A stretch of DNA of 32,000 bases from Bacteroidota bacterium (GCA_947479755.1 CANKAM010000009.1:36464-68463); one strand, 5' to 3'. Numbered from the stretch's first letter, positions 6,138 to 28,214 are shown. The notes: generated from the sequence alone by a model not told the origin. Numbers and translations are program-made.

Positions 6138-6656
6138 CTACACCGCCTCCGCTTCCTTCAACTTCGCATTGGCAACATTCACTGCAAAGTCAAAGAATAT
6201 CTTCACCGCTTTGGTAAATTTAAATTGTCCTTCGGCACGGAACAATACATTCTTACGATGCCATGTGCTGATGAAATCTTCAAAATTAGCTACCGAGGTT
6301 TTTTCCAATACTTCACATTTAGATGATTGTCTCAGCATCTGTTCTGTTTCGGCCATGTCAAAAACACCCACTTCAATGGCATCACGGAAATTCTTTCCGC
6401 TGTAGTCCAGCTCGCGGCAAAGCAAGGCAAGAAACAACACAAAATCGCGGGTACGTTTTTCCGTTCCTTCGGTGGAAGTGAGGTAAGCAATTTCGGAATC
6501 AATCACCAACTCATAACCGTAGCTCTGGGTAAAGAATTCGCGATATTCCTCTTCCTGCAACTTCAGCGAAACGAAGGTGGGGTTAGGATAGATTACAAAA
6601 CGCCCGTCAACAAGAGCGCTTACAATTTCACGGTGTTCACTTGGATAGCTTTGCAT
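6138..6656 (-). CDS. Small acidic third subunit of the SMC-like operon; possible MukE/MksE/JetB-type (kite-like) protein, function unproven
   Basis: 172-aa ORF whose ATG overlaps the upstream gene by 20 nt. It is acidic and has no catalytic motifs. Size and position fit the small accessory subunit of condensin-like or ABC-three-component systems. Confidence 0.55.
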   Translation of the reverse strand: MQSYPSEHREIVSALVDGRFVIYPNPTFVSLKLQEEEYREFFTQSYGYELVIDSEIAYLTSTEGTEKRTRDFVLFLALLCRELDYSGKNFRDAIEVGVFDMAETEQMLRQSSKCEVLEKTSVANFEDFISTWHRKNVLFRAEGQFKFTKAVKIFFDFAVNVANAKLKEAEAV

Positions 6657-7869
6657 AAACTTTAATTTTTGGCATTAATAAGGTGGCATCGGCCAGTTTT
6701 ATTTCGTAACGCTTTTCGTCTTTATATTCTATTACCAGGTCTTCGTCCAGCAACATGTTAGAGAGCGTAAAAAATTTAGACAGGGTAATATTTTCGGTCT
6801 GTTCTTCCAGCGAAGTCAGGCACCATTTGTAAAAATCTTTTACGCCATCGTCTTTCAGCAATTGCTCTTTAAAGAAAGCGGCATCGGGCAGCCACTCTAT
6901 ATCTTCATCACTTTCATTGAAAAGAATTTCGGGCGTGAGGTAACTAAACTGGTCAATATAAAATTCAGCTTCAGCAGCAAATGCCTTGGAGGTAACGCTT
7001 GATTTTGTTCTGCGCACTATGTGCGGAAGTGCAGCAACGTATGCTTTAGGATCATCAATGTTCTCCACGAAATGATAAAAGCCGTTGAGAATAATAGAAT
7101 CACTTTTGATACGCTCCAGCAGCGGCAATAATTCACGAGTAAGTTTGCTCAGCGTTTTATCTAATTCCGATTTTGCATTTACCGCGCAGGCATACAGTTT
7201 TTCGAACTCCAGTTTCAACTCGTAGTTATCCGAAAGCAAACGTCTTTCATTGGAATACTGCTGCAATTGAATAATCACATTCACAATGGAATCAGCACGT
7301 TCTTTATCCAAAATCCCATTGAGCGGAATAATGTATTCGTCAATCCAGAAGTTAGCACGTTGTATGCGTGTGGAGAAGGCAGAATGATTTCCAACATTAA
7401 CTTTCAATGCTTCGGTATCGCGCAGCAGGCGTTGCGTTTGTCCTTCAATATCACTCAGGAAATCTTCAATTACATTAATAATTTCCTGAGCAAGTAATAC
7501 AACACGAAAACCGGTTGTCTCCGTTTTCAATGCCGTGAAATGATTGAAAACTGCCTGATACCTGTTTTTTAATGTTTCGGGTAAATTCAAAACAAAATCG
7601 TTGAACAGATATTCCAGAAAAGGAATGTAGTTCCGGTTGAGTTTGTATTCGCCCGTTGAAAGTTGTCGGCAGAATTTTACTTCTGAGGTAAGGCGGTAAA
7701 GGGAAATCTTGCTTTCGTTCTTTGCATTGTAGTCATGAAGCAGACGCATGAACTTGTCTGCATCAATCATGAAATGCGGCTTGCCCGCAGCGAATGCGCT
7801 GTGCACAAACTCATAATGCGTATTCAAAAAACGCAGAATTTCTTTACCGGATAGATTTAAGTTGCTCAT
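6637..7869 (-). CDS. All-helical middle subunit of the SMC-like operon; possible kleisin/MukF/JetA-like or ABC-3C middle component, function unproven
   Basis: 410-aa ORF starting 3 nt after the ATPase stop. It looks helix-rich, and I recognise no nuclease, ATPase or transmembrane motif. Confidence 0.55.
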   Translation of the reverse strand: MSNLNLSGKEILRFLNTHYEFVHSAFAAGKPHFMIDADKFMRLLHDYNAKNESKISLYRLTSEVKFCRQLSTGEYKLNRNYIPFLEYLFNDFVLNLPETLKNRYQAVFNHFTALKTETTGFRVVLLAQEIINVIEDFLSDIEGQTQRLLRDTEALKVNVGNHSAFSTRIQRANFWIDEYIIPLNGILDKERADSIVNVIIQLQQYSNERRLLSDNYELKLEFEKLYACAVNAKSELDKTLSKLTRELLPLLERIKSDSIILNGFYHFVENIDDPKAYVAALPHIVRRTKSSVTSKAFAAEAEFYIDQFSYLTPEILFNESDEDIEWLPDAAFFKEQLLKDDGVKDFYKWCLTSLEEQTENITLSKFFTLSNMLLDEDLVIEYKDEKRYEIKLADATLLMPKIKVYAKLSK

Positions 7870-7872
7870 GGT

Positions 7873-10602
7873 TTAGTTCGCGTTCCTGTAAGTAACGGGG
7901 AATGATTGCAACTCGCCAAAAGTAATTTTAGGTTTACGGGCTCCTTTATCTTTTGCCTGTGCCAGCGGCTCTTTCACCAGATAATACTTCTGAATGCCTT
8001 CTACTTTACGTGGTGCAGCAAAGATCGGAACAAAGTTGTGGTCGATGCAAAAACGCACCAGTTGCTTCACGTTCTTTTGTCCGATTGCATCCAGCTCATC
8101 TACATAAATCACAATTTTGTTTTCAGGATCACTGTGAACTAAATCTTTCAGAATGTTCAGGAAGAGATACAATTTCAGAACAATGTTAGTTCCGCGCGAT
8201 TGCACCTGTTTAGACAAATCAATTTCTTCGCTTTCGCCTGTAACCTTTGTGATCTCAACTTTAATGGTAAACAAATCGGTGATGTCAACAGGCTTGCCTT
8301 TGCTGTCGGTTAATTGTTTTTCCAAAGCTGCTTTGCTTTCGCTGTAACCGTTGTCAAAATCAATTCCTCCCGTAAATTTCAAACGGGAGATTTTTTCAAG
8401 GTCTTGAATCATTTCTTCGTTCTCTACAATTTTCACACGCACACTCTGAATATTCGATACCGGATATTCAGCAAGCTTTGCGTTGTAGCTTTTATAGATA
8501 AACGTTTTAAAATCGTTGAACTGCGTAAGGAATGAATGGGTAGGGTTTCCAATCTCGTAAGAAAGCGTATCCAGCAGATTGCTGATAACCTTGTCCATCT
8601 GCGGAATATTGCTGATCTCCTCTTCTACCTCCGTAACAAACTCTCGTATATCCTGAATGTCTTTGTCCAGCTTTTTATTGATAGCATCTTTCAACTCTTT
8701 GCGTTGCTCGCGTGTTGCCCTGAAACTATCATACACACGATAGAAGCGGTCGTAGATTTTATCAAACGGCTCGTTTACTGTTTCGTCTGTTTGCAGAATA
8801 TCGTTCTTGGCAACAATGTGTTCGTATTGCTCGCGGTATTTTGAAAGATTGGCATGCAGCCTGTTCAGTTCAAGTTTACGTGAAGCCAATGTATCTTTCT
8901 CTTTTGTTATCTCCGCATCTTTCGCATCAATCTTGCGCTGAATATCACTCAGTGTTTTTCTCAGTTTGCTGTTTACCAATGCTTCGTTTTCTTTTTTAGC
9001 TGCAACCAACGAAGGTTTATCGTTAATCTTCTTAATCAGCTTTGCTGTATCAGAGATTGACTGAGCAAGTTTTTCAACCTGTTGCTGCAAGGTGCTGCGG
9101 TTTTTTATGGCCTCTAACTGAATGCTTTTTTCAGCAAGCTCTTTCTTCTTTGTTTTTACTTCATCCTGTAGTTGCTTAACCGTAGGAGGATGCTTCAGTT
9201 CAATTCCCTTCACATCAATTTTTCCATCAAAGAACGAAAGCGGTAAATCTGCTTTGGTAATTTTTTTCTTGATGTGTGACTTACTCAGAAAAGCAACATC
9301 ACTGCTCAGGTAAGTATAAACTTTGCTGATTACATCAGGCTTTGAGGAGATATTCTGATAAAGCAGGTTATCAAAATCCTTGATATTTTTTTGTTGCTGT
9401 TCAATTTCGTCATTCAGTTTTTTGATAGCGCCTTCTACTTCCTGCAACGTAAATTTACTACGGTCGAGTTGCATGATCTGTGCTTCAATATTAATGCGCT
9501 GACGGTTTTCTTCTTCATACTTCGCCATGATTCCCTGAAACATCAGGTTGTCTTCCGTAGGCTCAAAGTCTGCCACTTCAACTAACTGTTTATTTATTTC
9601 TTCAATGGCGTTGGTGGCGTTTGAAATCTGATTGTTCAGATTTGCTTTTTCGGTAATCAAATGGTCGCGCTGGTGTTTCAGCGTGTATTCAATTTTATTT
9701 TCCAGTTCACGGATAGACAATGAAAGCGGACTTTCAGAACCTGTCTTTTCCCACAGTTCCTTTTCAATGGCGTTAAAATGCAACACAAAGGTGTGCTTCA
9801 GTTTTGCCAAAATATGTTCTTCGGTTGAAAATTTATCGTTCAGCAATTTCAGCTTTTCAAAATCCTGTTTTACTGCCGAAAGATTATCCAGGTGATGTTT
9901 CTTTTTCTCGAACTCATTAATTTTCTCAAAGCTTGAACTGGTAAAAACATTCAGTGAAAGATCTTGTTTGTTATCAGCAATCAAAAGTGCATTCTTAAAA
10001 GACTTCTCGCTGATATCGCTGGTTTTAATAAGGTGGCGATAAATCTCTGTAAAGCTGTTAGAGAACGAACGGCCTTTGCGTTTAACTTCGCGCTTAATCC
10101 AAACCACAGGATTTTTTGTGCGGTCTGAGTTGTAAACCGTGTTGTAAAGGTCTTCTCCTTTCAGCAATACAGGCGGGTCAAGCGGATTTTGTTTGGTAAG
10201 TTCTTCCAGAATTTTGTCCCAACGTTTTACCTTGGACGAGTCAGCCGATTTCTGAATAAAGTTTTCTTCTTTAAATGCTCCGGGCAAACGGTAATACTCA
10301 ATTGTGTTTTCAGGAGTTGCCTTTGCCAGTATGCAATAATATTCGGTTTTAAAGATTTCAAAAATGATGAAACTGTGCAGACTTGTTCCGTCAAAATAGT
10401 GTTTCATGGAGTCCGCTAACTTTCGGTTATCCTCAAAACGCATCTGGTCTTTATCGGTGATATAAAGAAAATTGAGCGTGTTCAGGAACGAGCTTTTACC
10501 CACGTTGTTTTCCGCAGTCATCTGAATGCTGTGGTTCTGACCAATTTGAATTGCTGCCTTGGCATACAATTCTGAGTTTATAACTATGATTCTGTTTAGC
10601 AT
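7873..10602 (-). CDS. SMC/MukB/Rad50-like ABC ATPase with a long coiled-coil insertion
   Basis: 909 aa. Walker A-like AENNVGKSS is at aa 30-38 (nt 10489-10515). Walker B IVIYVDELD is at aa 830-838 (nt 8089-8115). A signature-like QSRGT lies about 30 aa upstream of Walker B. About 450-500 aa of K/E/Q/L-rich heptad-like sequence separates the two half-heads. Confidence 0.8.
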   Translation of the reverse strand: MLNRIIVINSELYAKAAIQIGQNHSIQMTAENNVGKSSFLNTLNFLYITDKDQMRFEDNRKLADSMKHYFDGTSLHSFIIFEIFKTEYYCILAKATPENTIEYYRLPGAFKEENFIQKSADSSKVKRWDKILEELTKQNPLDPPVLLKGEDLYNTVYNSDRTKNPVVWIKREVKRKGRSFSNSFTEIYRHLIKTSDISEKSFKNALLIADNKQDLSLNVFTSSSFEKINEFEKKKHHLDNLSAVKQDFEKLKLLNDKFSTEEHILAKLKHTFVLHFNAIEKELWEKTGSESPLSLSIRELENKIEYTLKHQRDHLITEKANLNNQISNATNAIEEINKQLVEVADFEPTEDNLMFQGIMAKYEEENRQRINIEAQIMQLDRSKFTLQEVEGAIKKLNDEIEQQQKNIKDFDNLLYQNISSKPDVISKVYTYLSSDVAFLSKSHIKKKITKADLPLSFFDGKIDVKGIELKHPPTVKQLQDEVKTKKKELAEKSIQLEAIKNRSTLQQQVEKLAQSISDTAKLIKKINDKPSLVAAKKENEALVNSKLRKTLSDIQRKIDAKDAEITKEKDTLASRKLELNRLHANLSKYREQYEHIVAKNDILQTDETVNEPFDKIYDRFYRVYDSFRATREQRKELKDAINKKLDKDIQDIREFVTEVEEEISNIPQMDKVISNLLDTLSYEIGNPTHSFLTQFNDFKTFIYKSYNAKLAEYPVSNIQSVRVKIVENEEMIQDLEKISRLKFTGGIDFDNGYSESKAALEKQLTDSKGKPVDITDLFTIKVEITKVTGESEEIDLSKQVQSRGTNIVLKLYLFLNILKDLVHSDPENKIVIYVDELDAIGQKNVKQLVRFCIDHNFVPIFAAPRKVEGIQKYYLVKEPLAQAKDKGARKPKITFGELQSFPVTYRNAN

Positions 10603-17276: not shown

Positions 17277-19619
17277 ATGCAAACCACACAAAATAAAATA
17301 GCAGGTTTTTTAGGTTTAGCTATTACCGCAGTCGGTTTTCTTGTACTCCTGGGTTGGCAATTTGATATTGAATTTCTGAAACGCCCCATTCCGGGGCTTG
17401 TTGCTATGAACCCGGTAACGGCACTCGGATTTTTTTTATCAGGAGTTGCTATTTTTCTTGTTACAAAGAATAGTACAGAAAAGCATACATTTAAATGGCT
17501 AAGTATAGTTTTAGCAGCAACTGTTATCCTTATTGGTGTTTTAAAACTTTCTGATATTATTTTTTCTACAACTATTGGAGAAGATGAATGGTTCTTTAAT
17601 ACTAAAAATTTTAAAGAAAAATTACGCGGCATTTCAAGCCGCATTGCACAAACTACAGCGCTGAATTTTATTTTGCTTGGCAGTTCAATTATTTTAAGTG
17701 GAAGCAAAAAAGCAATTTTAAACTCAATTGCAAATTACCTGGCACTGGGAACTTTTCTCATAGCACTTTTTTCTACTCTGGGCTACGTTTATTTTATTCC
17801 CGAATTTATAGAACTACTTACAAAAAATCCTATGGCTGTGCATACGGCAATATGCTTTCTGATTGCTGCCTTGGCTGTAATGTTCTACAATCACAACCAG
17901 GGATTTATGCTCACCTTTTCGGGTTCTGACCCGGGTGGGCTCCTAGCCCGTGTATTGGTTCCGGGAATTGTACTCTTCCCGTTTTTTCTTGGAATAGGAC
18001 TTCTTTACATTGTCCACCATTACAATGTAAGTACTGAATTGCTGGTGGGCTTTGGGGTAATTAATGTTACGCTTGTGTTCTTTTTTATTACCTGGTATGT
18101 AGCTGCTCAGTTGAATAAGGTCAATGCCAAACGCAATGAGGTTGAAAAAGAATTATCACTCTCGCACGAACGGTTTTTTACGTTTTTCGAATCAAGTCCG
18201 GTTCCAACCAATATTATCAGGGTAAAAGACGGGCACTACCTTCATGCAAATACTGCGTTTTTAAAATTATTTTCTCTTACCCGAGAACAGGTAATCGGAA
18301 AAACTTCTGCAGAGTTTAATATTATAGACGCTAAAAAACGAGGGGCCCTTCTTGAATATGTAAAAGAAAAAAATTACAACATGCAGGATGTAGAAGCTAA
18401 GCTGATAAGCTCAACCGGTAAAAAAATTGACATACTTACCTCAACACTACTAATTGAACTAGATGGTGAGCCTCACATGCTCACTACACTTATTGATATA
18501 ACCGAACGAAAATCCATTGAAGAAGAGATCCGCAAAAGCAGAAAGAGTCTTAACGATGCGCAAAAATTATCAAAAACAGGCAGTTGGGAGTTTAACCTCA
18601 AAACCGGTGCGTTGTTTTGGTCTGATGAGCTCTATCACATTTTTGAGGTAGAGGAAACACCTGCTGAAAAACTTTTTGAAGTTTGCCGGAAAAAAATTCA
18701 TCCCGATGATATTGCAAATCTTGATGATGCAATAAACCTGGCAAACGAAGCGGGGGTAGCAGCTGTTTATGAACACAGAGTGATTATGGGTGACGGCAGT
18801 ATCAAGCATCTGTTTGGACTTGGCGAAATAATAAAGGACGAAGATGGAAAACCTCTTTGGTTAAGAGGAACAACTCAGGATATTACTGAGCGAAAAGAAT
18901 TTGAAGAAAAGCTGCGGCAAAATAACATACAATTAGACCTCAAAAATAAAGAACTGGAACAATTTGCATTTGTGGCCTCGCATGATTTGCAGGAACCTCT
19001 GCGCACTATAAGCAGTTTTACCGAACTACTTACTGATGAATATGCAGCAAAGTTTGACAACAACGCAAATACCTATGTCCGCTTTATTTCTCAATCGGCA
19101 ATGCGCATGCGCGATTTAATAACTGCCTTACTCGACTACTCACGACTGGGCAATAAAATTATTTTACAACAAAGCGATTGCAATGATATTCTGAAACATG
19201 CAATGGAAAATTTACACGTTTCCATAAAAGAAAGCGAGGCAGTTATAATAGCTGAAAATCTTCCTGTGCTGAAAGCGTACCCGATTGAGATGGAACTGTT
19301 ATTTCAGAATTTGATTGGCAATGCTATTAAATTCAGGAAAAAAGAAGTGATACCTGAAATTAATATTAAAGCCAAAAAACGCGAGCATGAATGGGAATTT
19401 TCATTTGCAGATAATGGAATTGGAATAGACCAGAAACATTTTGAAAAAATATTTCTTCTTTTCCAGCGTCTGCATTCGAGCGATAATTATAAAGGTTCGG
19501 GCATTGGCTTATCGCACTGCAAAAAAATTGTGGAACTGCACAACGGGAGAATCTGGGTTGAATCAAAAGCAGGTGAAGGAAGTGTTTTTTATTTTACAAT
19601 AGCAGTGCAGGCTGAGTAG
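17277..19619 (+). CDS. Membrane sensor histidine kinase: multi-TM N-terminal domain, two PAS domains, HisKA, HATPase_c
   Basis: 780 aa. About 8 hydrophobic segments in the first 290 aa. PAS-like regions, H-box FVASHDLQEPLRT, and N/G boxes (NLIGNAIKF, DNGIGI, GSGIGLS). Confidence 0.9.
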   Translation: MQTTQNKIAGFLGLAITAVGFLVLLGWQFDIEFLKRPIPGLVAMNPVTALGFFLSGVAIFLVTKNSTEKHTFKWLSIVLAATVILIGVLKLSDIIFSTTIGEDEWFFNTKNFKEKLRGISSRIAQTTALNFILLGSSIILSGSKKAILNSIANYLALGTFLIALFSTLGYVYFIPEFIELLTKNPMAVHTAICFLIAALAVMFYNHNQGFMLTFSGSDPGGLLARVLVPGIVLFPFFLGIGLLYIVHHYNVSTELLVGFGVINVTLVFFFITWYVAAQLNKVNAKRNEVEKELSLSHERFFTFFESSPVPTNIIRVKDGHYLHANTAFLKLFSLTREQVIGKTSAEFNIIDAKKRGALLEYVKEKNYNMQDVEAKLISSTGKKIDILTSTLLIELDGEPHMLTTLIDITERKSIEEEIRKSRKSLNDAQKLSKTGSWEFNLKTGALFWSDELYHIFEVEETPAEKLFEVCRKKIHPDDIANLDDAINLANEAGVAAVYEHRVIMGDGSIKHLFGLGEIIKDEDGKPLWLRGTTQDITERKEFEEKLRQNNIQLDLKNKELEQFAFVASHDLQEPLRTISSFTELLTDEYAAKFDNNANTYVRFISQSAMRMRDLITALLDYSRLGNKIILQQSDCNDILKHAMENLHVSIKESEAVIIAENLPVLKAYPIEMELLFQNLIGNAIKFRKKEVIPEINIKAKKREHEWEFSFADNGIGIDQKHFEKIFLLFQRLHSSDNYKGSGIGLSHCKKIVELHNGRIWVESKAGEGSVFYFTIAVQAE

Positions 19620-19650
19620 CTATTCATTATTGACGAAACATAAAACAAAA

Positions 19651-19672
19651 AGTCCCGCAACAATGCGGGACT
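19651..19672. terminator. Bidirectional rho-independent terminator between convergent genes
   Basis: AGTCCCGCA-acaa-TGCGGGACT is a 9-bp GC-rich stem. It is flanked by an A-tract upstream and a T-tract downstream. Confidence 0.8.
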
Positions 19673-19700
19673 TTTATATTTTACACGTTATACGTTTTAT

Positions 19701-20654
19701 TTACAAGGGTGTCAACACTGCATTAAGGGTTATGGTTTGCGCTTCGGCTATTTCAATTTCCACTTCATAGTCTGCATACCCATCGGCAGTAACTTTTATT
19801 TTAGTTGTGCCTACAAATTTTGTTTTTAAAGTATAATCACCGTTTGCATCGCTAAGTGTAAGGTCATCACTTTCAAGAACAAGAATGGTTGCGTTGGCAA
19901 CAGCCACAGGTAATCCCGGGCCGGGAGGAGGAACGGTGCCTGTTATTTTTCCGCTGATGGTTGATTCTGCACCCACGGTAATATAAATAACACCCCACTC
20001 ACGTGCATTGTTGCGCATGCTGTCGGCTTCTTCTTCGTTGTAAAATGTTTCTACTTCGTCCCACACTTTTCTTATCACTTTGTCGGTTTCGTCAAACAAG
20101 GCTTCCAGTGTTTCTTCGGCTGTATCTAAGGTATCTTTCAAATTACTTTGCGAAGTAAATAAACCTACAAAAGCAGATACCTCGGTTTGCACCTCCGGAG
20201 CTGTGGGGTTAGTCATAGGTGCGCCTCCTACAGTGATGCGCTGCGCATCACCGGTTACAATTTTATTTCCCCAGCTTATTATATCTTCTTCGGTTAACAT
20301 TTCGGGTAAGGCATCTGAGCCCACCTCTAATTTATAAAGTGCGCGGTGGGCAGCATTGTAAATGCCGCGTGCCACACCCAGATTAAACACTTGAATAAAA
20401 TGCGAGGTAAACATTTTGCTGCGCCCTTTAGCTACATTTTTCAGTGGGGTATTGCCACTGTAAGTTGATTGCTTTAAACCTAAATCATTATAGGCAGTTT
20501 CATAGTTTGCCACCATGTTATCAAGGCGGGTGGTGGTGGCAACTGACAGTATGTTGCCTGCAGGCGGAAGACTGTCTTTTTTGTTTTTGGCAAAACGAAT
20601 AGCCTTGTAACGCGATTCGATAGTACGGGGTAATTTACGGGTAATGCTTGTCAT
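19701..20654 (-). CDS. Hypothetical protein with a C-terminal carboxypeptidase-regulatory-like beta-sandwich; N-terminal ~230 aa unrecognised
   Basis: The ORF track starts at a TTG at 20717; the ATG at 20654 (MTSITRKLPRT...) is more plausible. C-terminal pattern: ISGKITG...ATILVLESDDLTLSDANGDYTLKT...KIKVTADGYADYEVEIEI...TLNAVL. No signal peptide. Confidence 0.6.
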   Translation of the reverse strand: MTSITRKLPRTIESRYKAIRFAKNKKDSLPPAGNILSVATTTRLDNMVANYETAYNDLGLKQSTYSGNTPLKNVAKGRSKMFTSHFIQVFNLGVARGIYNAAHRALYKLEVGSDALPEMLTEEDIISWGNKIVTGDAQRITVGGAPMTNPTAPEVQTEVSAFVGLFTSQSNLKDTLDTAEETLEALFDETDKVIRKVWDEVETFYNEEEADSMRNNAREWGVIYITVGAESTISGKITGTVPPPGPGLPVAVANATILVLESDDLTLSDANGDYTLKTKFVGTTKIKVTADGYADYEVEIEIAEAQTITLNAVLTPL

Positions 20655-20754
20655 GGTTTTTTTTGGTTTTAAAAATTTGTGGGGCAAAGTAAAACCCGGC
20701 AAGGGGGTATGAGTCAATAAACGGTTTCAAAACTTTTTAACAACAGCAGGCTTT

Positions 20755-21105
20755 TCAGCACAACGGATTTTCCTCTATTTTTCTGAGTTGCGTATAAACC
20801 TGTTGCACTTCTTTTTCTTTCATGTTGATTAATAAATCGCTTGTGTTTTCAAGATACTGGCGCGACAAATCGGGAAGTTGAGCCTTGCGTAGCAACGTAT
20901 TAATACGTCCCATAATATTTGCGCGAAACAGCGGCAAAAAATGTTGATAACTAAGGCTGCGCAAAGCACCCAAAATAGCAAGCAATTGAATGGAGGCTTT
21001 AGTAAAATCCTGTTCTTCAACTATTATTTTTTCAATGGCAATAAGCTGCTTTTGCGCTTTGTGTAAGGGAGGCAAAAGGTTGCGGATACGCTCGTCCTGT
21101 TCCAT
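20755..21105 (-). CDS. Small helical hypothetical protein with weak resemblance to CsoR/FrmR-type helix bundles, without metal ligands
   Basis: 116 aa. LHKAQKQLIAIEKIIVEEQDFTKASIQLLAILGALRSL resembles the RIEGQ...ED.YC.D...Q..A...AL pattern of DUF156 proteins, but the Cys/His ligands are absent. Its stop lies about 100 nt upstream of the start of the 19701-20654 gene on the same strand. Confidence 0.5.
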   Translation of the reverse strand: MEQDERIRNLLPPLHKAQKQLIAIEKIIVEEQDFTKASIQLLAILGALRSLSYQHFLPLFRANIMGRINTLLRKAQLPDLSRQYLENTSDLLINMKEKEVQQVYTQLRKIEENPLC

Positions 21106-21240
21106 GGTTATTGGGTTAGGGGGGTATAGGGAAACTTAAGTTGATTAATACGAAGATAAAAAAGGATTGAAGTCAAACAGAAAAAATTACTTTTGACTTT
21201 TCAGCCCATTTTTATCTAAATCATTGATTTTCAACAATGC

Positions 21241-21576
21241 CACTGCGTGTTTTCTAAGCAAAACACACGCTGTCATATATTGCAGCGTCTGTTTTCTTTA
21301 CAAAACTCGGTCTGGCATATATGCCGGAGCGTGTTTTTAGTTCAAAACAACCAATGGCATATATGACATTGGGTATTTTGTAAGCAAAAGATAGAATGGC
21401 ATGTGTAACAGCGGGTGTTTTGTTTACAAAACACAGGATGTCATATATAACTGTGCGTATTTTTTTAACAAAACACCTGATGGCATATATGCCAACTCAT
21501 GTTTCCTTTACAAAAGGCACAATGCAATACAGGACAGCGCGTGTTTTGAAAACAAAAACAGGGGTCTTTTTAAGAG
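21241..21576. repeat. Tandem array of 8 phased 42-bp degenerate repeats, each carrying two palindromic motifs
   Basis: Units start at 21241, 21283, 21325, 21367, 21409, 21451, 21493 and 21535. Consensus is approximately cAGCGcGTGTTTTnTTtACAAAACAcnnnaTGGCATATATGc. A ninth, very degenerate unit may lie at about 21200-21240. Confidence 0.85.
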
Positions 21577-21585
21577 CAACCGAAA

Positions 21586-22248
21586 TTATTTCGCGTAATG
21601 TGCAATCACATCACTCTCAAAAATCAGTTTTCCGGATTCGGGATTTTTGGCAAGCTGCACCATGCAGCGGGCTACGGTTTGGGCTTCTATGGCTTTGTAT
21701 TTTTTTAGCGGACCCGCAAACAAAAAACCGGTAGCCTGCATAAAAACTTTGCCTATGCTCTCTCCTATTCGTGTTTCTTTTCTGTCGCCCAGCAACATGG
21801 AAGGGCGCAGGATACAAAAACTATCAAAATTTAAAGCAGCAATGGCGTTTTCAATATCACCCTTGGTGCGCAGATAAAAATTACCCGAGTGTGCATCGGC
21901 TCCTAATGACGATACCAGCATAAATTGTTTTGCTCCCTGCGCCTTGGCGGCTTTGGCCAATTCAAGGCAATAGGTATAATCTACTTTACGGAAATTCTCC
22001 TGCGAGCCTGCAGTTTTTATGGTAGTGCCTAAACAACAAAATACCACATCAGCAGTAAGCCGTTGCGAAAACTGGTTCAGCTCATCAAAGTCAACAACAA
22101 TTTCCGAAACTTTTTCGCGGTTTATGGCAAGTGGTTTACGGGTAATTAATTTTACTCTGCTGAAATCGTTGTCATCTGCCAGCAACTGAAGAACATGACT
22201 GCCGATTAATCCGCTGGCACCTGCAATAAGAGCAGTTTTTCCGCTCAT
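21586..22248 (-). CDS. NAD(P)H-binding Rossmann-fold oxidoreductase (atypical SDR / HTATIP2-like)
   Basis: 220 aa with N-terminal ALIAGASGLIGSHVLQLL (GxxGxxG). ATGA start/stop overlap with the upstream protease gene. Confidence 0.75.
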   Translation of the reverse strand: MSGKTALIAGASGLIGSHVLQLLADDNDFSRVKLITRKPLAINREKVSEIVVDFDELNQFSQRLTADVVFCCLGTTIKTAGSQENFRKVDYTYCLELAKAAKAQGAKQFMLVSSLGADAHSGNFYLRTKGDIENAIAALNFDSFCILRPSMLLGDRKETRIGESIGKVFMQATGFLFAGPLKKYKAIEAQTVARCMVQLAKNPESGKLIFESDVIAHYAK

Positions 22249-23891
22249 TGAATACTGAGTTTTCGGGTGATGATTTTTTCTTCACTCTGCAATTCAATAA
22301 AGTACATGCCCGCTGCAAGCGGCAGATTGAACGATGCTGAATTTTGGTTGGTGAAGGTGCGCGATAAAACCAATGCGCCAATTTGATTGTGAATGTTTAC
22401 CTGAACCACACCTTTTGTAAAATCATTCCAGTTAAGTGTAAAGTTTCCCTGCGAAGGATTAGGAAAAACAGTAACACTGTTTTCTGCGTTTTGCTCCTTA
22501 TCATCAATACCAACCAGACTGCAATTACCACCATTTAATGGAACAATGTTCTCAAAACTATTGCAACTATATCCGGGGTTGATACTGTTCTGCATCACCT
22601 CAATTCCACCGTCAAGTCCGCTGTCATTAAACAGATTGCGTTTGGTTTCGCCTGAATTTGTCATATAATACATAACCGATGATGCATTGTTATTATGCTG
22701 CTCAAGATGTAAGTGCCCCAGTTCATGCAGCGCAACTGATTCAAAATCATAATAATTAGTAAAGGGTTGTCCACTTCCTGTATTCCACAAAGCCGAAGAA
22801 CTGAAAATCATATCCACTTCACTCAGCTGCCAGTTCACTATACCTTCATTGTTGCAGGCCGAAACTGAAATAACGGTAGTGGCTAACGCACCTGCGGGCA
22901 GCAAACCTTGTTCATCAAATGAAATGGAACTGTATCCGTCATTATAAGCAGTAATGCCATGAAGATAGTTTACCGTGTCTAGTGAAATATTCATTCCGGT
23001 ATTGCAACGCCAGGTGGTCATTGCTCTTTTCAGGGCATACATTGCCTGTGTATTTTGCGAAAACAGTGAACTCATTTTCATAGTATATCCTCCGCTGATA
23101 TCAGCAGCTGCAAGTGCTATTTTGCCTATCTGACTATTGTAAACCAACTCACTCAAGGCATAATGTATATTCACCTGCTGGGCGCTTTGCACGCTTGCGC
23201 CTGATGAAGTTGTTACCTTTATATTTCCTGAACCCGCCACTGTAACTCCGTTTTCTGTGTAGGTAGGAATGAGCATTTTTATCATCGTGTTAGTCCACAA
23301 GATGTAATGTGGTCCCGCAGGAATAGTTACCCAACCTGCACCACCATTGTCTGCATTACGAAATGAAACAGCTCCGTTACCCTGACTGTTGCCAAAATCA
23401 GTACCGGTAATTGTTATCTCATCCTGAGTTCCTGCGGTAATGTTTAAAGGTGTGATGGTAGAAATTTCCGCAACAGTTGATTTTTCTTCCGTTAGTTCAT
23501 ACGGAACAAAGCCTTGTGAAAGTGCAACCGGAAAATACTTGTCGTTTTTTTCGGTGCAGTAAAAGGTTCCCACATCACCCACCTGTAAATTAAATCCCGG
23601 AAAATGAATTTGCGCTTTATCTTCCATCACACCACCGGGAGTAATAATCTCAATCAAAAGAGGAATTTCATTTCCTGATTTTTGAGAAGCAACTTGAATG
23701 GTGTTGGAAGTTGAGATATTTCCAAACGCATCGTAAAAACATTTTTTTGCTAAAACCTTTCCATCAAAAATAACATCGGCTTGTGCAGATTTTTCTTCAA
23801 TGCTCAAGACAACCATTGAGCATTGTGCAAGAACATTATTCGCAAATGCGCTCAGAAAAAAGAAAAATAGAATAGAGTATATTTGCCGCAC
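22245..23891 (-). CDS. Secreted metzincin-like zinc metalloprotease with an IPT/TIG-like domain and a T9SS C-terminal sorting domain
   Basis: 548 aa with a GTG start. Signal peptide ILFFFFLSAFANNVLAQ. ITPLNITAGTQDEITITGTDFG is IPT/TIG-like. HELGHLHLEQH fits HExxHxxxxxH. C-terminal VTVFPNPSQGNFTLNW...GMYFIELQSEEKIITRKLSIQ is a Por/T9SS CTD. Confidence 0.8.
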   Translation of the reverse strand: MRQIYSILFFFFLSAFANNVLAQCSMVVLSIEEKSAQADVIFDGKVLAKKCFYDAFGNISTSNTIQVASQKSGNEIPLLIEIITPGGVMEDKAQIHFPGFNLQVGDVGTFYCTEKNDKYFPVALSQGFVPYELTEEKSTVAEISTITPLNITAGTQDEITITGTDFGNSQGNGAVSFRNADNGGAGWVTIPAGPHYILWTNTMIKMLIPTYTENGVTVAGSGNIKVTTSSGASVQSAQQVNIHYALSELVYNSQIGKIALAAADISGGYTMKMSSLFSQNTQAMYALKRAMTTWRCNTGMNISLDTVNYLHGITAYNDGYSSISFDEQGLLPAGALATTVISVSACNNEGIVNWQLSEVDMIFSSSALWNTGSGQPFTNYYDFESVALHELGHLHLEQHNNNASSVMYYMTNSGETKRNLFNDSGLDGGIEVMQNSINPGYSCNSFENIVPLNGGNCSLVGIDDKEQNAENSVTVFPNPSQGNFTLNWNDFTKGVVQVNIHNQIGALVLSRTFTNQNSASFNLPLAAGMYFIELQSEEKIITRKLSIQ

Positions 23892-24010
23892 TGAATAAAT
23901 TCTGATTGTGATGGTTGAAGTTAGTTATTGACATTACTTATTTGAAAACTTTCGCTTAACACTGTTTTTCTGTCGACCAATCAGGATTTGTTTCGATATG
24001 ATTTAAAAAA

Positions 24011-24676
24011 ATGACACAACATACCATTACCGTAAGTAAGACAGGACGTTATTACACTTCAGGAAATATAGATGCAAACACCGAAACTATTTGGCTGGTT
24101 TGTCATGGCTACGGACAACTGGCTGAATATTTTATCAAACACTTTCAACTGGTGGAAAACGATAAGACTTTTGTAGTTGCTCCGGAAGGTCTTTCAAAAT
24201 TTTATTTAGATGGCGTTTCCGGAAGAATGGGTGCAGCATGGATGACCAAAGAAGACCGCGAAAATGAAGTCAGGGATTACCTCAACTTTCTGAATTTGTT
24301 ATTCGACAAACTTTTTTCGGAGGTTGATTTCAATAAAGTAAAACTGAACGTTCTTGGTTTTTCGCAAGGCACAGCAACGGTTTGTCGTTGGCTGGGACAA
24401 AGCAATGTTAAAGTAAACCGGTTAATTATGTGGGCAGGCACATTTCCGGTAGATGTGGATTTAGCTATTCACGGAAACCGCTTCAGTTCTATTCCTGTTA
24501 CCCTTGTTTATGGCCATCAGGACGAATATTTAGAATACCTAAAACCGGAGGACTACAAGAAATTTCTTGATAGCGCAGGCTTTAAATACAACATAGTTAC
24601 CTTTGATGGCAAACACGAAATGAATGCGGAAGTGTTGAGGGAAGTAGCGAATGAGTTCACAGTCAATAGTCGATAG
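24011..24676 (+). CDS. Alpha/beta hydrolase (phospholipase/carboxylesterase-like)
   Basis: 221 aa. The WLVCHGYGQ oxyanion region, nucleophile elbow GFSQGT, and a late D/H fit a serine hydrolase. Confidence 0.7.
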   Translation: MTQHTITVSKTGRYYTSGNIDANTETIWLVCHGYGQLAEYFIKHFQLVENDKTFVVAPEGLSKFYLDGVSGRMGAAWMTKEDRENEVRDYLNFLNLLFDKLFSEVDFNKVKLNVLGFSQGTATVCRWLGQSNVKVNRLIMWAGTFPVDVDLAIHGNRFSSIPVTLVYGHQDEYLEYLKPEDYKKFLDSAGFKYNIVTFDGKHEMNAEVLREVANEFTVNSR

Positions 24677-24732
24677 TCCACCGTTTAGCGAGATTATTAA
24701 CAAAATCATTAATTCACAAAATCACAAATAGT

Positions 24733-25176
24733 ATGAACCTAACCGACCAAATCAACACCGACATTAAAAATGCAATGCTGGCAAAAGATGCTTCAAAACT
24801 TGAAGCTTTACGTGCTATTAAATCTGCATTACTGCTTTTAAAAACTTCACCAGAAGGGCAAAGCGAAGCAACAGAACTGAAAGCACTTCAAAAAATGGTG
24901 AAGCAACGTAAAGAAACAGCCGAGGTTTATGTTGGACAAGGAAGGCAAGAATTAGCCGATGTGGAAATTTCGCAAGCTGCCGTTATTGAAAACTATCTTC
25001 CTAAACAAATGAGTGAAGATGATTTGAAAGCAATACTTCAGAATATTATTACAACTGTTGGCGCATCTTCACCTGCCGACATGGGCAAAGTGATGGGCGC
25101 TGCCACTAAAGAACTAAGTGGAAAGGCAGACGGAAGTGTGATTTCTAAGATTGTAAGAGAATTACTTTCTAAGTAG
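24733..25176 (+). CDS. yqeY: GatB/YqeY domain protein
   Basis: 147 aa. DIKNAMLAKD...LEALRAIKSALL...QRKETAEVY...E.EISQAAVIENYLPKQMSEDDL is the classic YqeY pattern. Confidence 0.85.
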   Translation: MNLTDQINTDIKNAMLAKDASKLEALRAIKSALLLLKTSPEGQSEATELKALQKMVKQRKETAEVYVGQGRQELADVEISQAAVIENYLPKQMSEDDLKAILQNIITTVGASSPADMGKVMGAATKELSGKADGSVISKIVRELLSK

Positions 25177-25182
25177 TATTTC

Positions 25183-25241
25183 GTCATTCCGAACTTGTTT
25201 CAGAATCTTAAATACAGATGCTGAAACAAGTTCAGCATGAC
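25183..25241. repeat. Intergenic palindromic element, likely a bidirectional terminator between convergent genes
   Basis: GTCATtccGAACTTGTTTCAG...17 nt...CTGAAACAAGTTCagcATGAC. It has a 13-bp perfect stem plus a 5-bp outer stem. The motif resembles a GTCAT..GAACTTGTTTC.. type palindrome that I recall seeing dispersed in Bacteroidota genomes. Confidence 0.6.
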
Positions 25242-25243
25242 AT

Positions 25244-26218
25244 TTATTTCTTTCTTCTGGTTGCAAATTGAACCAACTCAATAAGTGAAGTTTTGTAAGT
25301 GCTTTCGCTAAAATCATTCAGCATTTTCAATGCGTTATTCTGATACTCGAGCATTTTTTGTTCTGCATAAGTGATACCGCCTTTCTGCTTAACAAATTCA
25401 ATTACCTCAGCCACTTTTTTCATATCGGTATTGTGATTTTTAACAATGTTGATGATGTGGCGTTTTTCACTTTTAGTTGATTTATTCAAACTATAAATCA
25501 AAGGAAGTGTCATCTTTTTTTCTTTGATGTCAATGCCGCTGGGTTTGCCGGTTTCATTGGCAAGCTCATAATCAAACAAATCATCTTTTATCTGGAAAGA
25601 AATTCCAACATATTCGCCAAAGAGTCGCATTTTTTCGGCTAATGCATCATCATCTGAAACAGATGCTGCGCCACTACTGCAACAGGATGCAATCAATGAC
25701 GCTGTTTTCTGGCGGATGATTTCAAAATAAACAGTCTCGTCAATATCCAGTTTGCGTGCCTTTTCAATCTGAAGCAATTCACCTTCACTCATTTCACGAA
25801 CTGAATTGGTTACAATTCCCAGCAAACGGTGTTCTTTATTTTCAACAGAAAGCAACAGTCCGCGCGAAAGCAAATAATCACCCACCAGCACTGCAATTTT
25901 ATTTTTCCAAAGTGCATTTACAGAAAAAAAACCTCTGCGCTCGTTGGAATCATCCACAACATCATCGTGAACCAATGTAGCGGTATGTAAAAGTTCAATT
26001 AATGTTGCCGCACGAAAAGTAGAATCATTAATTCCGCCACACATTCCTGCAGAAAGAAAAACAAACATGGGCCGCATTTGCTTGCCCTTGCGTTTAACAA
26101 TGTAATGTGTGATTTTGTCTAGCAGCGCAACCTTGCTTTTCATTGAATCGCGAAAGTGCGATTCAAATGAATCCATTTCAGCAGCAATAGGGGCTTTTAT
26201 CTGGTCGAGCTTGAGCAA
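25244..26218 (-). CDS. Long-chain polyprenyl diphosphate synthase (IspB-like)
   Basis: 324 aa. First DDxxD-type motif LVHDDVVDDS and second motif FQIKDDLFDY. Confidence 0.88.
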   Translation of the reverse strand: MLKLDQIKAPIAAEMDSFESHFRDSMKSKVALLDKITHYIVKRKGKQMRPMFVFLSAGMCGGINDSTFRAATLIELLHTATLVHDDVVDDSNERRGFFSVNALWKNKIAVLVGDYLLSRGLLLSVENKEHRLLGIVTNSVREMSEGELLQIEKARKLDIDETVYFEIIRQKTASLIASCCSSGAASVSDDDALAEKMRLFGEYVGISFQIKDDLFDYELANETGKPSGIDIKEKKMTLPLIYSLNKSTKSEKRHIINIVKNHNTDMKKVAEVIEFVKQKGGITYAEQKMLEYQNNALKMLNDFSESTYKTSLIELVQFATRRKK

Positions 26219-26266
26219 ATCAAAATTTTAGCTTGCCGAAAGTAGAGATTATTTCACCACTAAGAA

Positions 26267-26311
26267 CACTAAGTTCACAAGAAAAAACTTCGTGTTCTTG
26301 TGAACTTAGTG
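26267..26311 (-). terminator. Long hairpin downstream of acs; probable terminator
   Basis: CACTAAGTTCACAAGAA-11 nt-TTCTTGTGAACTTAGTG is a 17-bp perfect stem. It starts 8 nt after the acs stop. Confidence 0.55.
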
Positions 26312-26318
26312 GCAAAAC

Positions 26319-28214
26319 TTAAATGGCTCCCAATTTAATTTCATCCACAACCGCAGGGTCAAGCAGCGTTGATGTATCACCAAGGTTGGCAACATCCCCT
26401 TCGGCAATTTTGCGCAATATTCTGCGCATTATTTTTCCACTACGGGTTTTGGGCAAACCTTTTACCACTTGTATTTTATCGGGTTTGGCAATGGCACCCA
26501 TGAATTTATTTACGGTAGCAATAATTTCTTTTTTCAGTTCATCGGTATCAGTTCTTCCGTGTTCGTCAATTACAAAGGCATAAATACCCCAACCTTTGAT
26601 GTCGTGCTGGAAACCAACTACAGCGCTTTCCACAATATCGGGATGCTCATTAATAGCATTTTCAATTTCTGCTGTTCCTAATAAGTGGCCTGAAACTTTT
26701 ATTACATCATCTACTCGACCGGTAATTCTGTAATAGCCATTTTCATCACGTTTACAGCCATCACCTGTAAAATAATAGCCTTTGAATTGTGAGAAATAAG
26801 CATCATGACAACGCTCATGGTTTCCATAGGTGGTGCGGATAATAGAAGGCCAGGGAAATTTCATACACAAGCGGCCTTCTACATTATTTCCTTCCAATAC
26901 ATTGCCTTTCTCATCTAATAAAACAGGTTGAATTCCGGGAAGCGGAAGTGTTGCAAACGATGGTTTTGTTTTGGTAATTCCGGCTAATGGTGAAATCATT
27001 ATTCCTCCCGTTTCTGTCTGCCACCAGGTATCTACAATCGGGCAATTTTTCTTGCCAATATTCTCTTCATACCAATGCCATGCTTCTTCGTTAATAGGTT
27101 CTCCAACACTTCCCAAAACTCTTAATGAATCCAATTTATAGGGTTTTACAAAATCCAATCCCATTGCTTCGAGCGAGCGGATTGCAGTTGGTGCGGTGTA
27201 AAATATATTCACCTTATGTTTATCAATCACGCTCCAGAATCTACCGGCATCGGGAAAGGTTGGAATGCCTTCAAACATCAAGGTTGTAGCACCGCTTAAT
27301 AAAGGACCATATATAAGGTATGAGTGCCCTGTTACCCAACCCACATCAGCAGTACACCAGAAAACCTCAGCCTCTTTATACTGAAATACATTCTGAAAAG
27401 TATAGGCTGTATAAACCATATAGCCACCTATAGTGTGCACCACACCTTTTGGTTTTCCTGTTGAGCCGGAAGTGTAGAGAATAAACAGCTTGTCTTCTGA
27501 ATCCATTTCTTCGGCAACAAATTCTGTGGTTGCTTTCTTAACTTCATCGTGCCACCAAACATCTCTTCCGCTTTGCATATTCACTGCAATTCCGGTGCGC
27601 TTCAGCGTAACTACCTTTTTCACCGAAGGACATATTTGCAAAGCCTCATCCACTATTACTTTCAGCGGAATATCTTTTGCTCCACGGTAACCGCCATCGG
27701 CAGTTACAACCAGGTTGCACTCGGCATCATTTATTCTGTCGGCAAGGGAACTGAATGAGAAGCCACCAAACACTACGGAATGAATAGCGCCAATTCTCGC
27801 ACAAGCCAGAACAGCAATTGCTAGTTCGGGAACCATTGGCATATAAATACAGATACGGTCGCCTTTTTTTGCTCCGTTGTTTTTAAGAACGTTGGCAAAG
27901 CGACAAACCTCTTCATGAAGTTCTTTGTAAGTGAGCTTTCTTACTTCCTCGTTTGGGCTATTGGGTTCCCAGATTATGGCAGTCTGGTCGCCTCTTTCAG
28001 CTAAATGGCGATCGAGGCAATTTTCGGTGATGTTGAGTCTGCCGCCAATAAACCATTTTACATCTGGCTTTTCAAAATTCCATTCCAGTACTTTGTCCCA
28101 CTTTTTGCGCCACTGAAAGTGTCCTGCTTTGTCTGCCCAGAATTGCTCAGGGTTTTCAACACTTTTGGTGTATTCGTTTTGGTATTCTTCAAAACTATTG
28201 ATGCGAAAACTCAT
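26319..28214 (-). CDS. acs: Acetyl-CoA synthetase (AMP-forming)
   Basis: 631 aa. The N-terminus (EEYQ...NPEQFW), YTSGSTGKPKGV, WWQTETGG and the C-terminal SGKIMRRILRKIA are diagnostic of Acs. Confidence 0.93.
   Translation of the reverse strand: MSFRINSFEEYQNEYTKSVENPEQFWADKAGHFQWRKKWDKVLEWNFEKPDVKWFIGGRLNITENCLDRHLAERGDQTAIIWEPNSPNEEVRKLTYKELHEEVCRFANVLKNNGAKKGDRICIYMPMVPELAIAVLACARIGAIHSVVFGGFSFSSLADRINDAECNLVVTADGGYRGAKDIPLKVIVDEALQICPSVKKVVTLKRTGIAVNMQSGRDVWWHDEVKKATTEFVAEEMDSEDKLFILYTSGSTGKPKGVVHTIGGYMVYTAYTFQNVFQYKEAEVFWCTADVGWVTGHSYLIYGPLLSGATTLMFEGIPTFPDAGRFWSVIDKHKVNIFYTAPTAIRSLEAMGLDFVKPYKLDSLRVLGSVGEPINEEAWHWYEENIGKKNCPIVDTWWQTETGGIMISPLAGITKTKPSFATLPLPGIQPVLLDEKGNVLEGNNVEGRLCMKFPWPSIIRTTYGNHERCHDAYFSQFKGYYFTGDGCKRDENGYYRITGRVDDVIKVSGHLLGTAEIENAINEHPDIVESAVVGFQHDIKGWGIYAFVIDEHGRTDTDELKKEIIATVNKFMGAIAKPDKIQVVKGLPKTRSGKIMRRILRKIAEGDVANLGDTSTLLDPAVVDEIKLGAI

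Follow-up and report, generated by a model that had tools for sequence, protein, structure and literature searches.

We confirmed that an intergenic region in the genome of an uncultured Bacteroidota bacterium contains a real, nonrandom tandem array of eight 42-bp units, U1 to U8, at positions 21241 to 21576 (no strand assigned) of the window, by which we mean the whole 32-kb stretch of DNA analyzed here. The core columns of this array are under purifying selection, its helical phasing has been kept through considerable divergence, and it is low in copy number and independent of its neighboring genes. With respect to function, we tentatively read the array as a helically phased, double-stranded-DNA platform for protein binding or DNA architecture, a reading to which we give somewhat less than an even chance; that proteins bind it, and what its biological role may be, is what we infer from the properties described below.

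The periodicity of the array sets it apart from the rest of the window. Within positions 21241 to 21576, sequence identity is 0.62 at a lag of 42 bp, 0.61 at 84 bp, and 0.66 at 126 bp, compared to a maximum of 0.378 at the best lag between 10 and 100 bp in 368 other 336-bp tiles of the window. A repeat search returned a spacing of 42 bp along the whole array, and TRF reported 3.3 copies only, because the units are just 65% alike. The 26 distinct units that we collected align without gaps, and the unit consensus is CAGCGCGTGTTTTnTTWACAAAACACnnnATGGCATATATGn, in which the conserved columns are C1, TTTT (columns 10 to 13), CAAAA (19 to 23), TG (31 to 32), and CATATAT (34 to 40). The eight unit starts, as well as the sequences of U2, U5, and U6, that had been given in the original prediction, a note made from the sequence alone, proved to be exact.

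Two dyads alternate along the array. Dyad A, found at unit offsets 7 to 26 in U1 to U6, has invariant TTTT and CAAAA tracts placed 10 bp apart, while dyad B recurs at offsets 28 to 47 and consists of the core TG-n-CATATAT and of outer arms that covary between units. The best copy of dyad A, GTGTTTTG-TTTA-CAAAACAC (21415 to 21434, no strand assigned), is predicted to form a hairpin of -6.3 kcal/mol as single-stranded DNA. The best copy of dyad B, TGGCATATATGCCA (21481 to 21494, likewise without strand), was supported by the palindrome, hairpin, and dyad-center analyses, and other good copies of dyad B lie at 21267 to 21288, 21309 to 21330, and 21351 to 21372. The perfect dyads quoted in the earlier note were all located, namely, those at 21415 to 21434, 21313 to 21324 (12 bp), and 21481 to 21494 (14 bp). 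A search allowing up to three mismatches to GTGTTTT-N5-CAAAACAC (i.e., GTGTTTTN5CAAAACAC) returned 17 matches against 3.2 expected, and 14 of these fall inside the array, representing seven sites read on both strands. The dyad centers fall at unit offsets 16.5 and 37.5, so that the dyads alternate A-B-A-B every 21 bp, as had been proposed. The proposal that this arrangement provides up to 16 sites holds for the number of centers expected, but just about 10 of the 16 are clearly symmetric (six or more of nine pairs complementary, for which the background P is 0.013 at each center). The poor centers are B4, B5, A7, B7, A8, and B8, and U8 is half degenerate.

The element as a whole is a self-contained intergenic module of about 350 bp that consists of a leader, the units, and a tail. 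The leader is a degenerate leading unit, U0 (21199 to 21240, no strand assigned), which was recognized by alignment with a paralogous array, where the stretch ending in AATCATTGATTTTCAACAATGC is kept from about position 21218 on (19 of 24 positions are the same in L041, the paralogous locus). The distances to the flanking genes agree with those originally given: 9 to 10 bp separate the array from the stop codon of the gene for a 220-aa NAD(P)-binding protein (NAD_binding_10/HIM1-like; 21586 to 22248, minus strand), the constant neighbor of this array copy, and 136 bp separate it from the ATG of a gene for a 116-aa orphan protein (20755 to 21105, minus strand). The array is noncoding, as had been claimed, with no open frame across it and with stop codons in all six frames of every copy. 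A six-frame pseudo-protein query, in a search that may have been blunted by X-linkers or by the HMMER bias filter, found no homologs. The six-frame stops and the lack of protein homologs led us to reject a protein-coding repeat of 14 residues.

The second array, in L041, is found on a separate contig of the metagenome-assembled genome (MAG) that also contributed L002, with an identical copy in L132, and its neighbors are a DUF6934 gene on one side and, on the other, a PorV gene with its terminator. Over the leader and U1 to U6, the window array and its paralog are identical at 214 of 276 positions (77.5%) with zero gaps, so the strict 21/42-bp phasing pointed out in the original prediction withstands even this degree of divergence. 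The two arrays are collinear unit for unit, with an identity of 0.77 in register and of 0.58 to 0.60 when shifted by one unit. This collinearity of diverged units indicates that the whole array was duplicated after its units had diverged and that the register has been kept since. No DNA-binding gene common to both array loci was found. The DUF6934 protein (about 147 aa; L041, 2665 to 3108) is 70 to 80% identical across Bacteroidota, and a conserved open reading frame of 53 to 57 aa follows its gene in every locus examined (L041, 2665 to 3108 and downstream, L119, L120, and L123); a PDB sequence search, NCBIfam, PHROGs, and PADLOC gave no match for it. A link between DUF6934 and the array was rejected, as the family has 4,235 matches, yet loci L119, L120, and L123 are without an array.

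The distribution of substitutions directly reveals constraint on the dyad cores. Between the window array and its paralog, 13 of 132 positions in core columns and 44 of 120 in other columns are substituted (Fisher p = 2.7e-7), an approximately 4-fold deficit in the core. With the core columns defined from the paralog only, the window array was then compared to the orthologous array in L037, from which it differs at 3 of 168 core positions and 13 of 168 other positions (p = 0.009). The exact 42-bp register is kept in five genome lineages as well as in the paralog. Conservation had been said to be concentrated in the palindromes, and in these comparisons, which draw on a pair of paralogous loci and on a few closely related strains, it is indeed the dyad cores that hold it, under purifying selection.

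The region surrounding the array diverges in a mosaic fashion. When positions 19507 to 27506 of the window are compared to L037, differences at third codon positions range from 5% in the gene for a 317-aa protein to 21 to 23% in those for the 220-aa, 324-aa, and 631-aa proteins, which suggests recombination between lineages. Because strains diverge in this mosaic way, a divergence of only 4.8% in the array is not decisive evidence when taken alone.

In several relatives (L128 to L131, L002, and L134), the 116-aa gene is separated from the array by a type IIG restriction-modification (RM) gene (PADLOC REase_MTase_IIG, E = 1e-244); this gene spans at least 964 aa in the stretch read and is called as 1,036 aa, and the loci compared were window positions 21190 to 21199, L130 2893 to 3000, L002 217 to 1037, and L134 1 to 1500. 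In these relatives, the RM gene is transcribed toward the array and ends in its own terminator, which places the array between two convergent 3' ends. The window lineage is without the RM gene, and the presence/absence junction (21190 to 21199, no strand assigned) carries the imperfect direct repeat CTTTTKACTTT, which flanks the gene in relatives. The apparent breakpoint at about 21190 was considered as a sign of a mobile array and rejected, as it corresponds to the presence or absence of the RM gene at this microhomology. A promoter-like element of the Bacteroidota type, TTG-N18-TACTTTTG (21167 to 21195, plus strand, with TANNTTTG at 21188 to 21195), sits 17 nt upstream of the RM gene ATG in relatives; with the RM gene missing from the window, it remains there as an orphan directed into the array. 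In a 757-bp ENA contig (L125, 1 to 103), GC-rich unrelated sequence abuts the hairpin located upstream of the 116-aa gene, with the joint at the junction of the RM indel; this contig represents a third variant of the junction or a chimera created in assembly.

These comparisons also separate the array from the 116-aa gene, which adjoins it only where the RM gene is missing and is not part of the element. In L128 to L131, the 108 bp upstream of the 116-aa gene reach the RM start codon with no array inside, while in L002, L134, and L041 the array is present with no 116-aa gene alongside. Array and gene are thus not one unit, and because the two do not co-occur across genomes, an operator of the 116-aa gene was rejected. 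The original prediction had proposed a nucleoprotein platform in connection with the 116-aa gene or with an ArsR-like gene. The general idea of such a platform leads among the readings that we considered, but the tie to flanking regulator genes is refuted, as the RM gene intervenes in relatives and the neighbors of the paralogous array are unrelated. In one genome or more, the module occupies at least two loci, and it does so independently of the genes adjacent to it.

The 116-aa protein forms just two clusters (91% identity) among 5.8 billion proteins and, with only near-identical relatives, is a lineage-restricted orphan. Its match to the CsoR family in Pfam, 18.1 bits, is below the cutoff of 22.8 bits; no match was found in PDB, and NCBIfam, PHROGs, and PADLOC searches were empty. 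Upstream of its open reading frame by 11 to 24 bp, at 21116 to 21129, is the sequence TTAGGGGGGTATAG, with a G6 tract and TA-rich half-sites, which we presume to resemble operators of the RcnR/FrmR/CsoR type. The 317-aa protein encoded next to it (window 19701 to 21105 for both genes) has a C-terminal CarboxypepD_reg domain, falls in a 90%-identity cluster of 10 sequences only, and had no match in NCBIfam, PHROGs, or PADLOC. Farther away, at 6138 to 10602 on the minus strand, is a three-gene operon for proteins of 909 aa (weak matches to JetC/SMC/Rad50 coiled coils), 410 aa (no match), and 172 aa (an MksE domain). This operon looks like a divergent MksBEF/Wadjet-like condensin system without a JetD gene.

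With respect to DNA shape, one helical turn separates the T4 tract from the A4 tract, and this pair of tracts is repeated every four turns. The power of AA/TT dinucleotides at 10.5 bp is 2.74 in the array, against a background mean of 0.2. Under three wedge models, the ratio of end-to-end distance to contour length is 0.26 to 0.32 for the array, compared to a window mean of 0.89 and a minimum of 0.56 outside the array; these curvature values derive from model parameters and are qualitative. By this modeling, the array is predicted to be the most curved DNA of the 32-kb window, and the paralog, with a ratio of 0.41 to 0.55, is the most curved segment of its own locus in all three models. The predicted curvature is gone when the period is set to 40, 45, or 47 bp (ratio, 0.80 to 0.96). 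Noncoding sequence, conservation of the cores, phasing, selection, and the period on which the predicted curvature depends all fit a cooperative DNA-protein platform.

Direct readout of the DNA is also suggested by the dyad cores themselves. The TTTT and AAAA arms show no covariation, and at each of their positions 24 to 26 of the 26 distinct units agree, an invariance that argues for readout of sequence or shape and not for mere pairing. The core of dyad B is contained in CGCATATATGCG, which as a duplex is a high-affinity site for the minor-groove silencer MvaT, and both H-NS and MvaT prefer runs of TpA steps (PMC4466236).

Considering these data, we propose a model for the double-stranded-DNA platform. 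Each unit corresponds to four helical turns and carries two elements spaced 21 bp, or two turns, from center to center, and this two-turn spacing brings all dyad elements onto one face of the helix. The first element is a rigid A-tract dyad, TGTTTT-N5/6-AAAACA, with its T4 and A4 one turn apart, and the second is a TpA dyad, TG-n-CATATATG-n-CA, which is flexible. Strong planar curvature over about 340 bp is predicted to result from the sum of the phased A-tracts. As the most likely function, one or two dimeric or minor-groove-binding proteins, encoded elsewhere, would assemble cooperatively on this DNA to form a wrapped or bent complex.

A fixed protein site does not predict every change that we observed. 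U1 reads GTG..CAC in the window and GCC..GGC in L037, with a mismatched intermediate in the paralog; at pair 8-25 of U4, T-A of the window corresponds to C-G of the paralog; and the outer arms of dyad B are unit specific yet complementary. Computed from the 26 distinct units, whose rows are related so that the comparison is indicative only, the covariation score is 0.177, against 0.114 for shuffled alignments (0 of 500) and 0.03 to 0.10 for slid partners. Such compensatory changes point to base pairing or to hairpin-templated mutation. They are most simply explained by occasional extrusion of hairpins followed by template-switch correction, or by an additional role of the single strand.

This leads to another hypothesis, also raised in the original prediction, in which the array is a string of hairpins in transcribed RNA or single-stranded form, either within the 3' untranslated region of the 220-aa gene or downstream of the orphan RM promoter. 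We regard this hypothesis as unlikely, and no better can be said for the roles that such a string might play, which are to stabilize, terminate, or insulate convergent transcripts or to act as a sponge for an RNA-binding protein in a REP/BIME-like manner. No terminator separates the array from the stop codon of the 220-aa gene, 10 nt away, and convergent genes flank it in relatives, but hairpins require neither an indel-free 42-nt register nor 10.5-nt phasing of A-tracts. Covariation above both the shuffled and the slid controls and the re-pairing of U1 in two different ways in two lineages support pairing, whereas AU stems never become GC, and the lack of covariation in the TTTT and AAAA arms weakens the case further. 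The B hairpins with their T-runs are terminator-like (8 found against 2.5 expected in the region), but only about 8 of the 16 hairpins beat shuffled sequences, at -1 to -6.3 kcal/mol, so that about half are marginal. G·U and A·C mismatches are equally frequent; thus, neither strand is favored, and no transcribed strand is indicated. While the Bacteroidota-type promoter is directed into the array in the window, it is missing in L002 and L041. Furthermore, Rfam 15 gave 0 matches at the gathering threshold, its E-value mode returning only miRNA precursor models far below threshold. Folds of the whole array as RNA were set aside as uninformative, since any array of palindromes collapses into one trivial giant hairpin.

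The array has a narrow distribution. An exact-pattern scan of one genome per species, covering 185,579 species, found true arrays at 3 loci in two close MAGs only, and its other 68 matches were without 42-bp periodicity; the T9SS and PorV genes indicate Bacteroidota. In JGI metagenomes, the A-B-A pattern had 0 matches, while the A-N25-A pattern returned 34 loci with unrelated 21- or 42-bp repeats that had been chosen by the pattern itself. Viral contigs yielded just one unrelated phage repeat. The window strain was found in many ENA, Logan, and NCBI assemblies; the intergenic region is identical in the five contigs of this strain that were checked, and the gene context is also the same in the remaining contigs with the same 220-aa protein. 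A covariance model built from the array units (R1) found no stray units outside the arrays in about 58 kb of nonredundant DNA of the lineage, which makes the element low-copy and not REP- or MITE-like. Dispersal as a REP or MITE family was the outcome that the original prediction had named as speaking against it; a second locus was indeed found, but no high-copy dispersal was seen in the species scan or in these 58 kb. Eight units are present in the window, L002, L037, L124, and L127, and seven are present in L134, where U3 and U4 recombined through their AATGGCAT motifs, so that exactly one 42-bp unit was lost and the phase was kept; this is the sole length change seen. In the same L134 locus (1823 to 2484), gene calling splits the NAD(P)-binding gene of 220 aa into two open reading frames (153 aa and 56 aa), which may reflect a frameshift or a pseudogene.

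It is doubtful, in our estimation, that the array is instead a low-copy selfish or relict satellite of the form leader-(42 bp)n-tail, akin to pneumococcal BOX elements or BIME clusters, that has reached a second locus, with palindromes kept by quasi-palindrome correction and with no host function. The discrete ends and the occurrence at two unrelated intergenic sites in one MAG would suit such a satellite, but no terminal inverted repeats were found between leader and tail, no target duplication is visible, and the window contains neither a transposase nor a RAYT gene. Likewise, the strain that lost one unit by recombination shows how a satellite could change, while 8 units are kept in all lineages examined but this one. 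Simultaneous two-base changes that perfect a palindrome are a signature of template switching, and the array is confined to one narrow lineage. However, the units are old and unhomogenized, yet orthologous and paralogous units are collinear, the core columns are under purifying selection, and no stray units occur in the roughly 58 kb of the lineage.

Returning to the proposed protein-binding platform, one specific form of it can be spelled out, although we think it rather improbable. In this form, the array is a so far undescribed chromosomal element of Bacteroidota, an ancient, selected, and intrinsically curved platform of alternating A-tract and TpA palindromes. At a small number of defined chromosomal sites, it would nucleate or load a silencer, a condensin, or a nucleoid-associated protein. 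The MksBEF-like system located 11 to 15 kb away, or some minor-groove binder, would then be a candidate for what is loaded.

It is very improbable that the array is an operator or iteron array of the 116-aa or ArsR-like gene, or a relic of an integrated plasmid or phage origin or centromere, since, even though its architecture resembles those of iterons and sopC and 136 bp separate it from the downstream 116-aa gene in the window, gene and array each occur without the other alongside, Pfam scans of the window open reading frames found no rep, par, integrase, transposase, or cas genes, blastn gave no match to the array among 72,556 plasmids and 50,697 phages, and no GC-skew switch was found.

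Several known classes of element were also rejected. The lack of a GC-skew switch and of plasmid or phage matches speaks against oriC or a plasmid origin, and the lack of adjacent rep or parAB genes, together with that of plasmid or phage matches, speaks against residence in an iteron origin or plasmid centromere. An integron, a riboswitch, or a small-RNA family was dismissed for want of integrase genes and of an Rfam match. A CRISPR array would be expected to have a period of roughly 55 to 75 bp instead of 42 bp; moreover, no Cas domains were found in the window open reading frames, the "spacer" half includes CATATAT, a conserved core, and the units align collinearly between orthologs and between paralogs.

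This array is informative in that divergence among its units has not erased the register, the dyad cores, or the predicted curvature, all of which are kept in orthologs and in the paralog. Retention of these features in old, diverged units makes it possible to demonstrate selection directly and to name what is constrained. A cloned 340-bp fragment offers a route to the partners of such arrays, in a phylum whose nucleoid proteins are poorly known.

The metagenome searches also returned other repeats with similar motifs. Termite gut metagenomes (L085, L088, L099, L100, L110, L115, and L117) contain arrays of about 0.5 to 1.3 kb with 21-bp units, TTGTTTTCCTTTCAAAACACG, which have the TGTTTT-N5-CAAAAC hairpin motif in common with dyad A and are otherwise unrelated. 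A 58-kb metagenome contig (L106, about 2880 to 3250) carries about 19 diverged 21-bp units with TTTTG-N4-CA, upstream of a gene without a Pfam match; these units are old and unhomogenized, and they match model R1 weakly (21.5 bits). Finally, 42-bp repeats with near-identical units and a TGTTTT...AAAACA palindrome, for which the search pattern itself selects, occur in L091, L093, and L116, in L095 and L097, in L098, and in L112, and those of L095 and L097 have a second dyad, CCGGAAACCGG.

Among known repeat families, the REP/BIME elements of Enterobacteria are GC rich, number hundreds per genome, and are associated with RAYT transposases; they are bound by gyrase and IHF and stabilize mRNA. The array resembles them in being extragenic, in lying at the 3' ends of convergent genes, and in consisting of alternating imperfect palindromes in tandem, but its dyads are AT rich, stray copies are absent from about 58 kb of the lineage, and no RAYT gene is present in the window. 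The pneumococcal BOX element (boxA-boxBn-boxC) is present in more than 100 copies and has ends that resemble terminal inverted repeats. Like the array, it is intergenic and forms hairpins, and its distinct end modules enclose tandem units of about 45 bp whose number varies; unlike BOX, the array has two known loci and no detectable inverted ends.

Centromere arrays also resemble the array in architecture. In the sopC site of the F plasmid, a 43-bp unit is repeated 12 times, and each copy contains an inverted repeat of 16 bp to which the dimeric protein SopB binds (PMC3177203). This site shares with the array tandem units of about four turns, each holding a short inverted repeat, that are phased onto one face of the helix (PMC3177203). 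However, sopC has one dyad per unit and near-identical units, and it lies beside sopAB on a plasmid, whereas the array has two different dyads per unit, has units that are 65% alike, and is chromosomal, with two or more loci, no par or rep genes nearby, and no similarity to plasmid sequences. The phased tandem architecture is common to iteron and centromere arrays and to the array described here, to which proteins may bind.

Noncoding tandem repeats with helical phasing occur widely among bacteria, with a function that still awaits explanation (PMC8161180). Subirana and Messeguer described constant-length noncoding tandem repeats in classes of 20 to 21 nt and of 52 nt, for which nucleoid-protein polymerization or small RNAs have been proposed as a function (PMC8161180). 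These repeats are abundant in each genome, and their length is seldom conserved between strains (PMC8161180), whereas the array is low-copy and near-invariant in copy number, has a 42-bp unit made of 2 x 21 bp with two alternating dyads, and belongs to Bacteroidota. Nevertheless, both are noncoding and species specific, span whole helical turns, and contain a motif with its reverse complement in each unit (PMC8161180), and the constant-length noncoding tandem repeats are the closest described class to the array.
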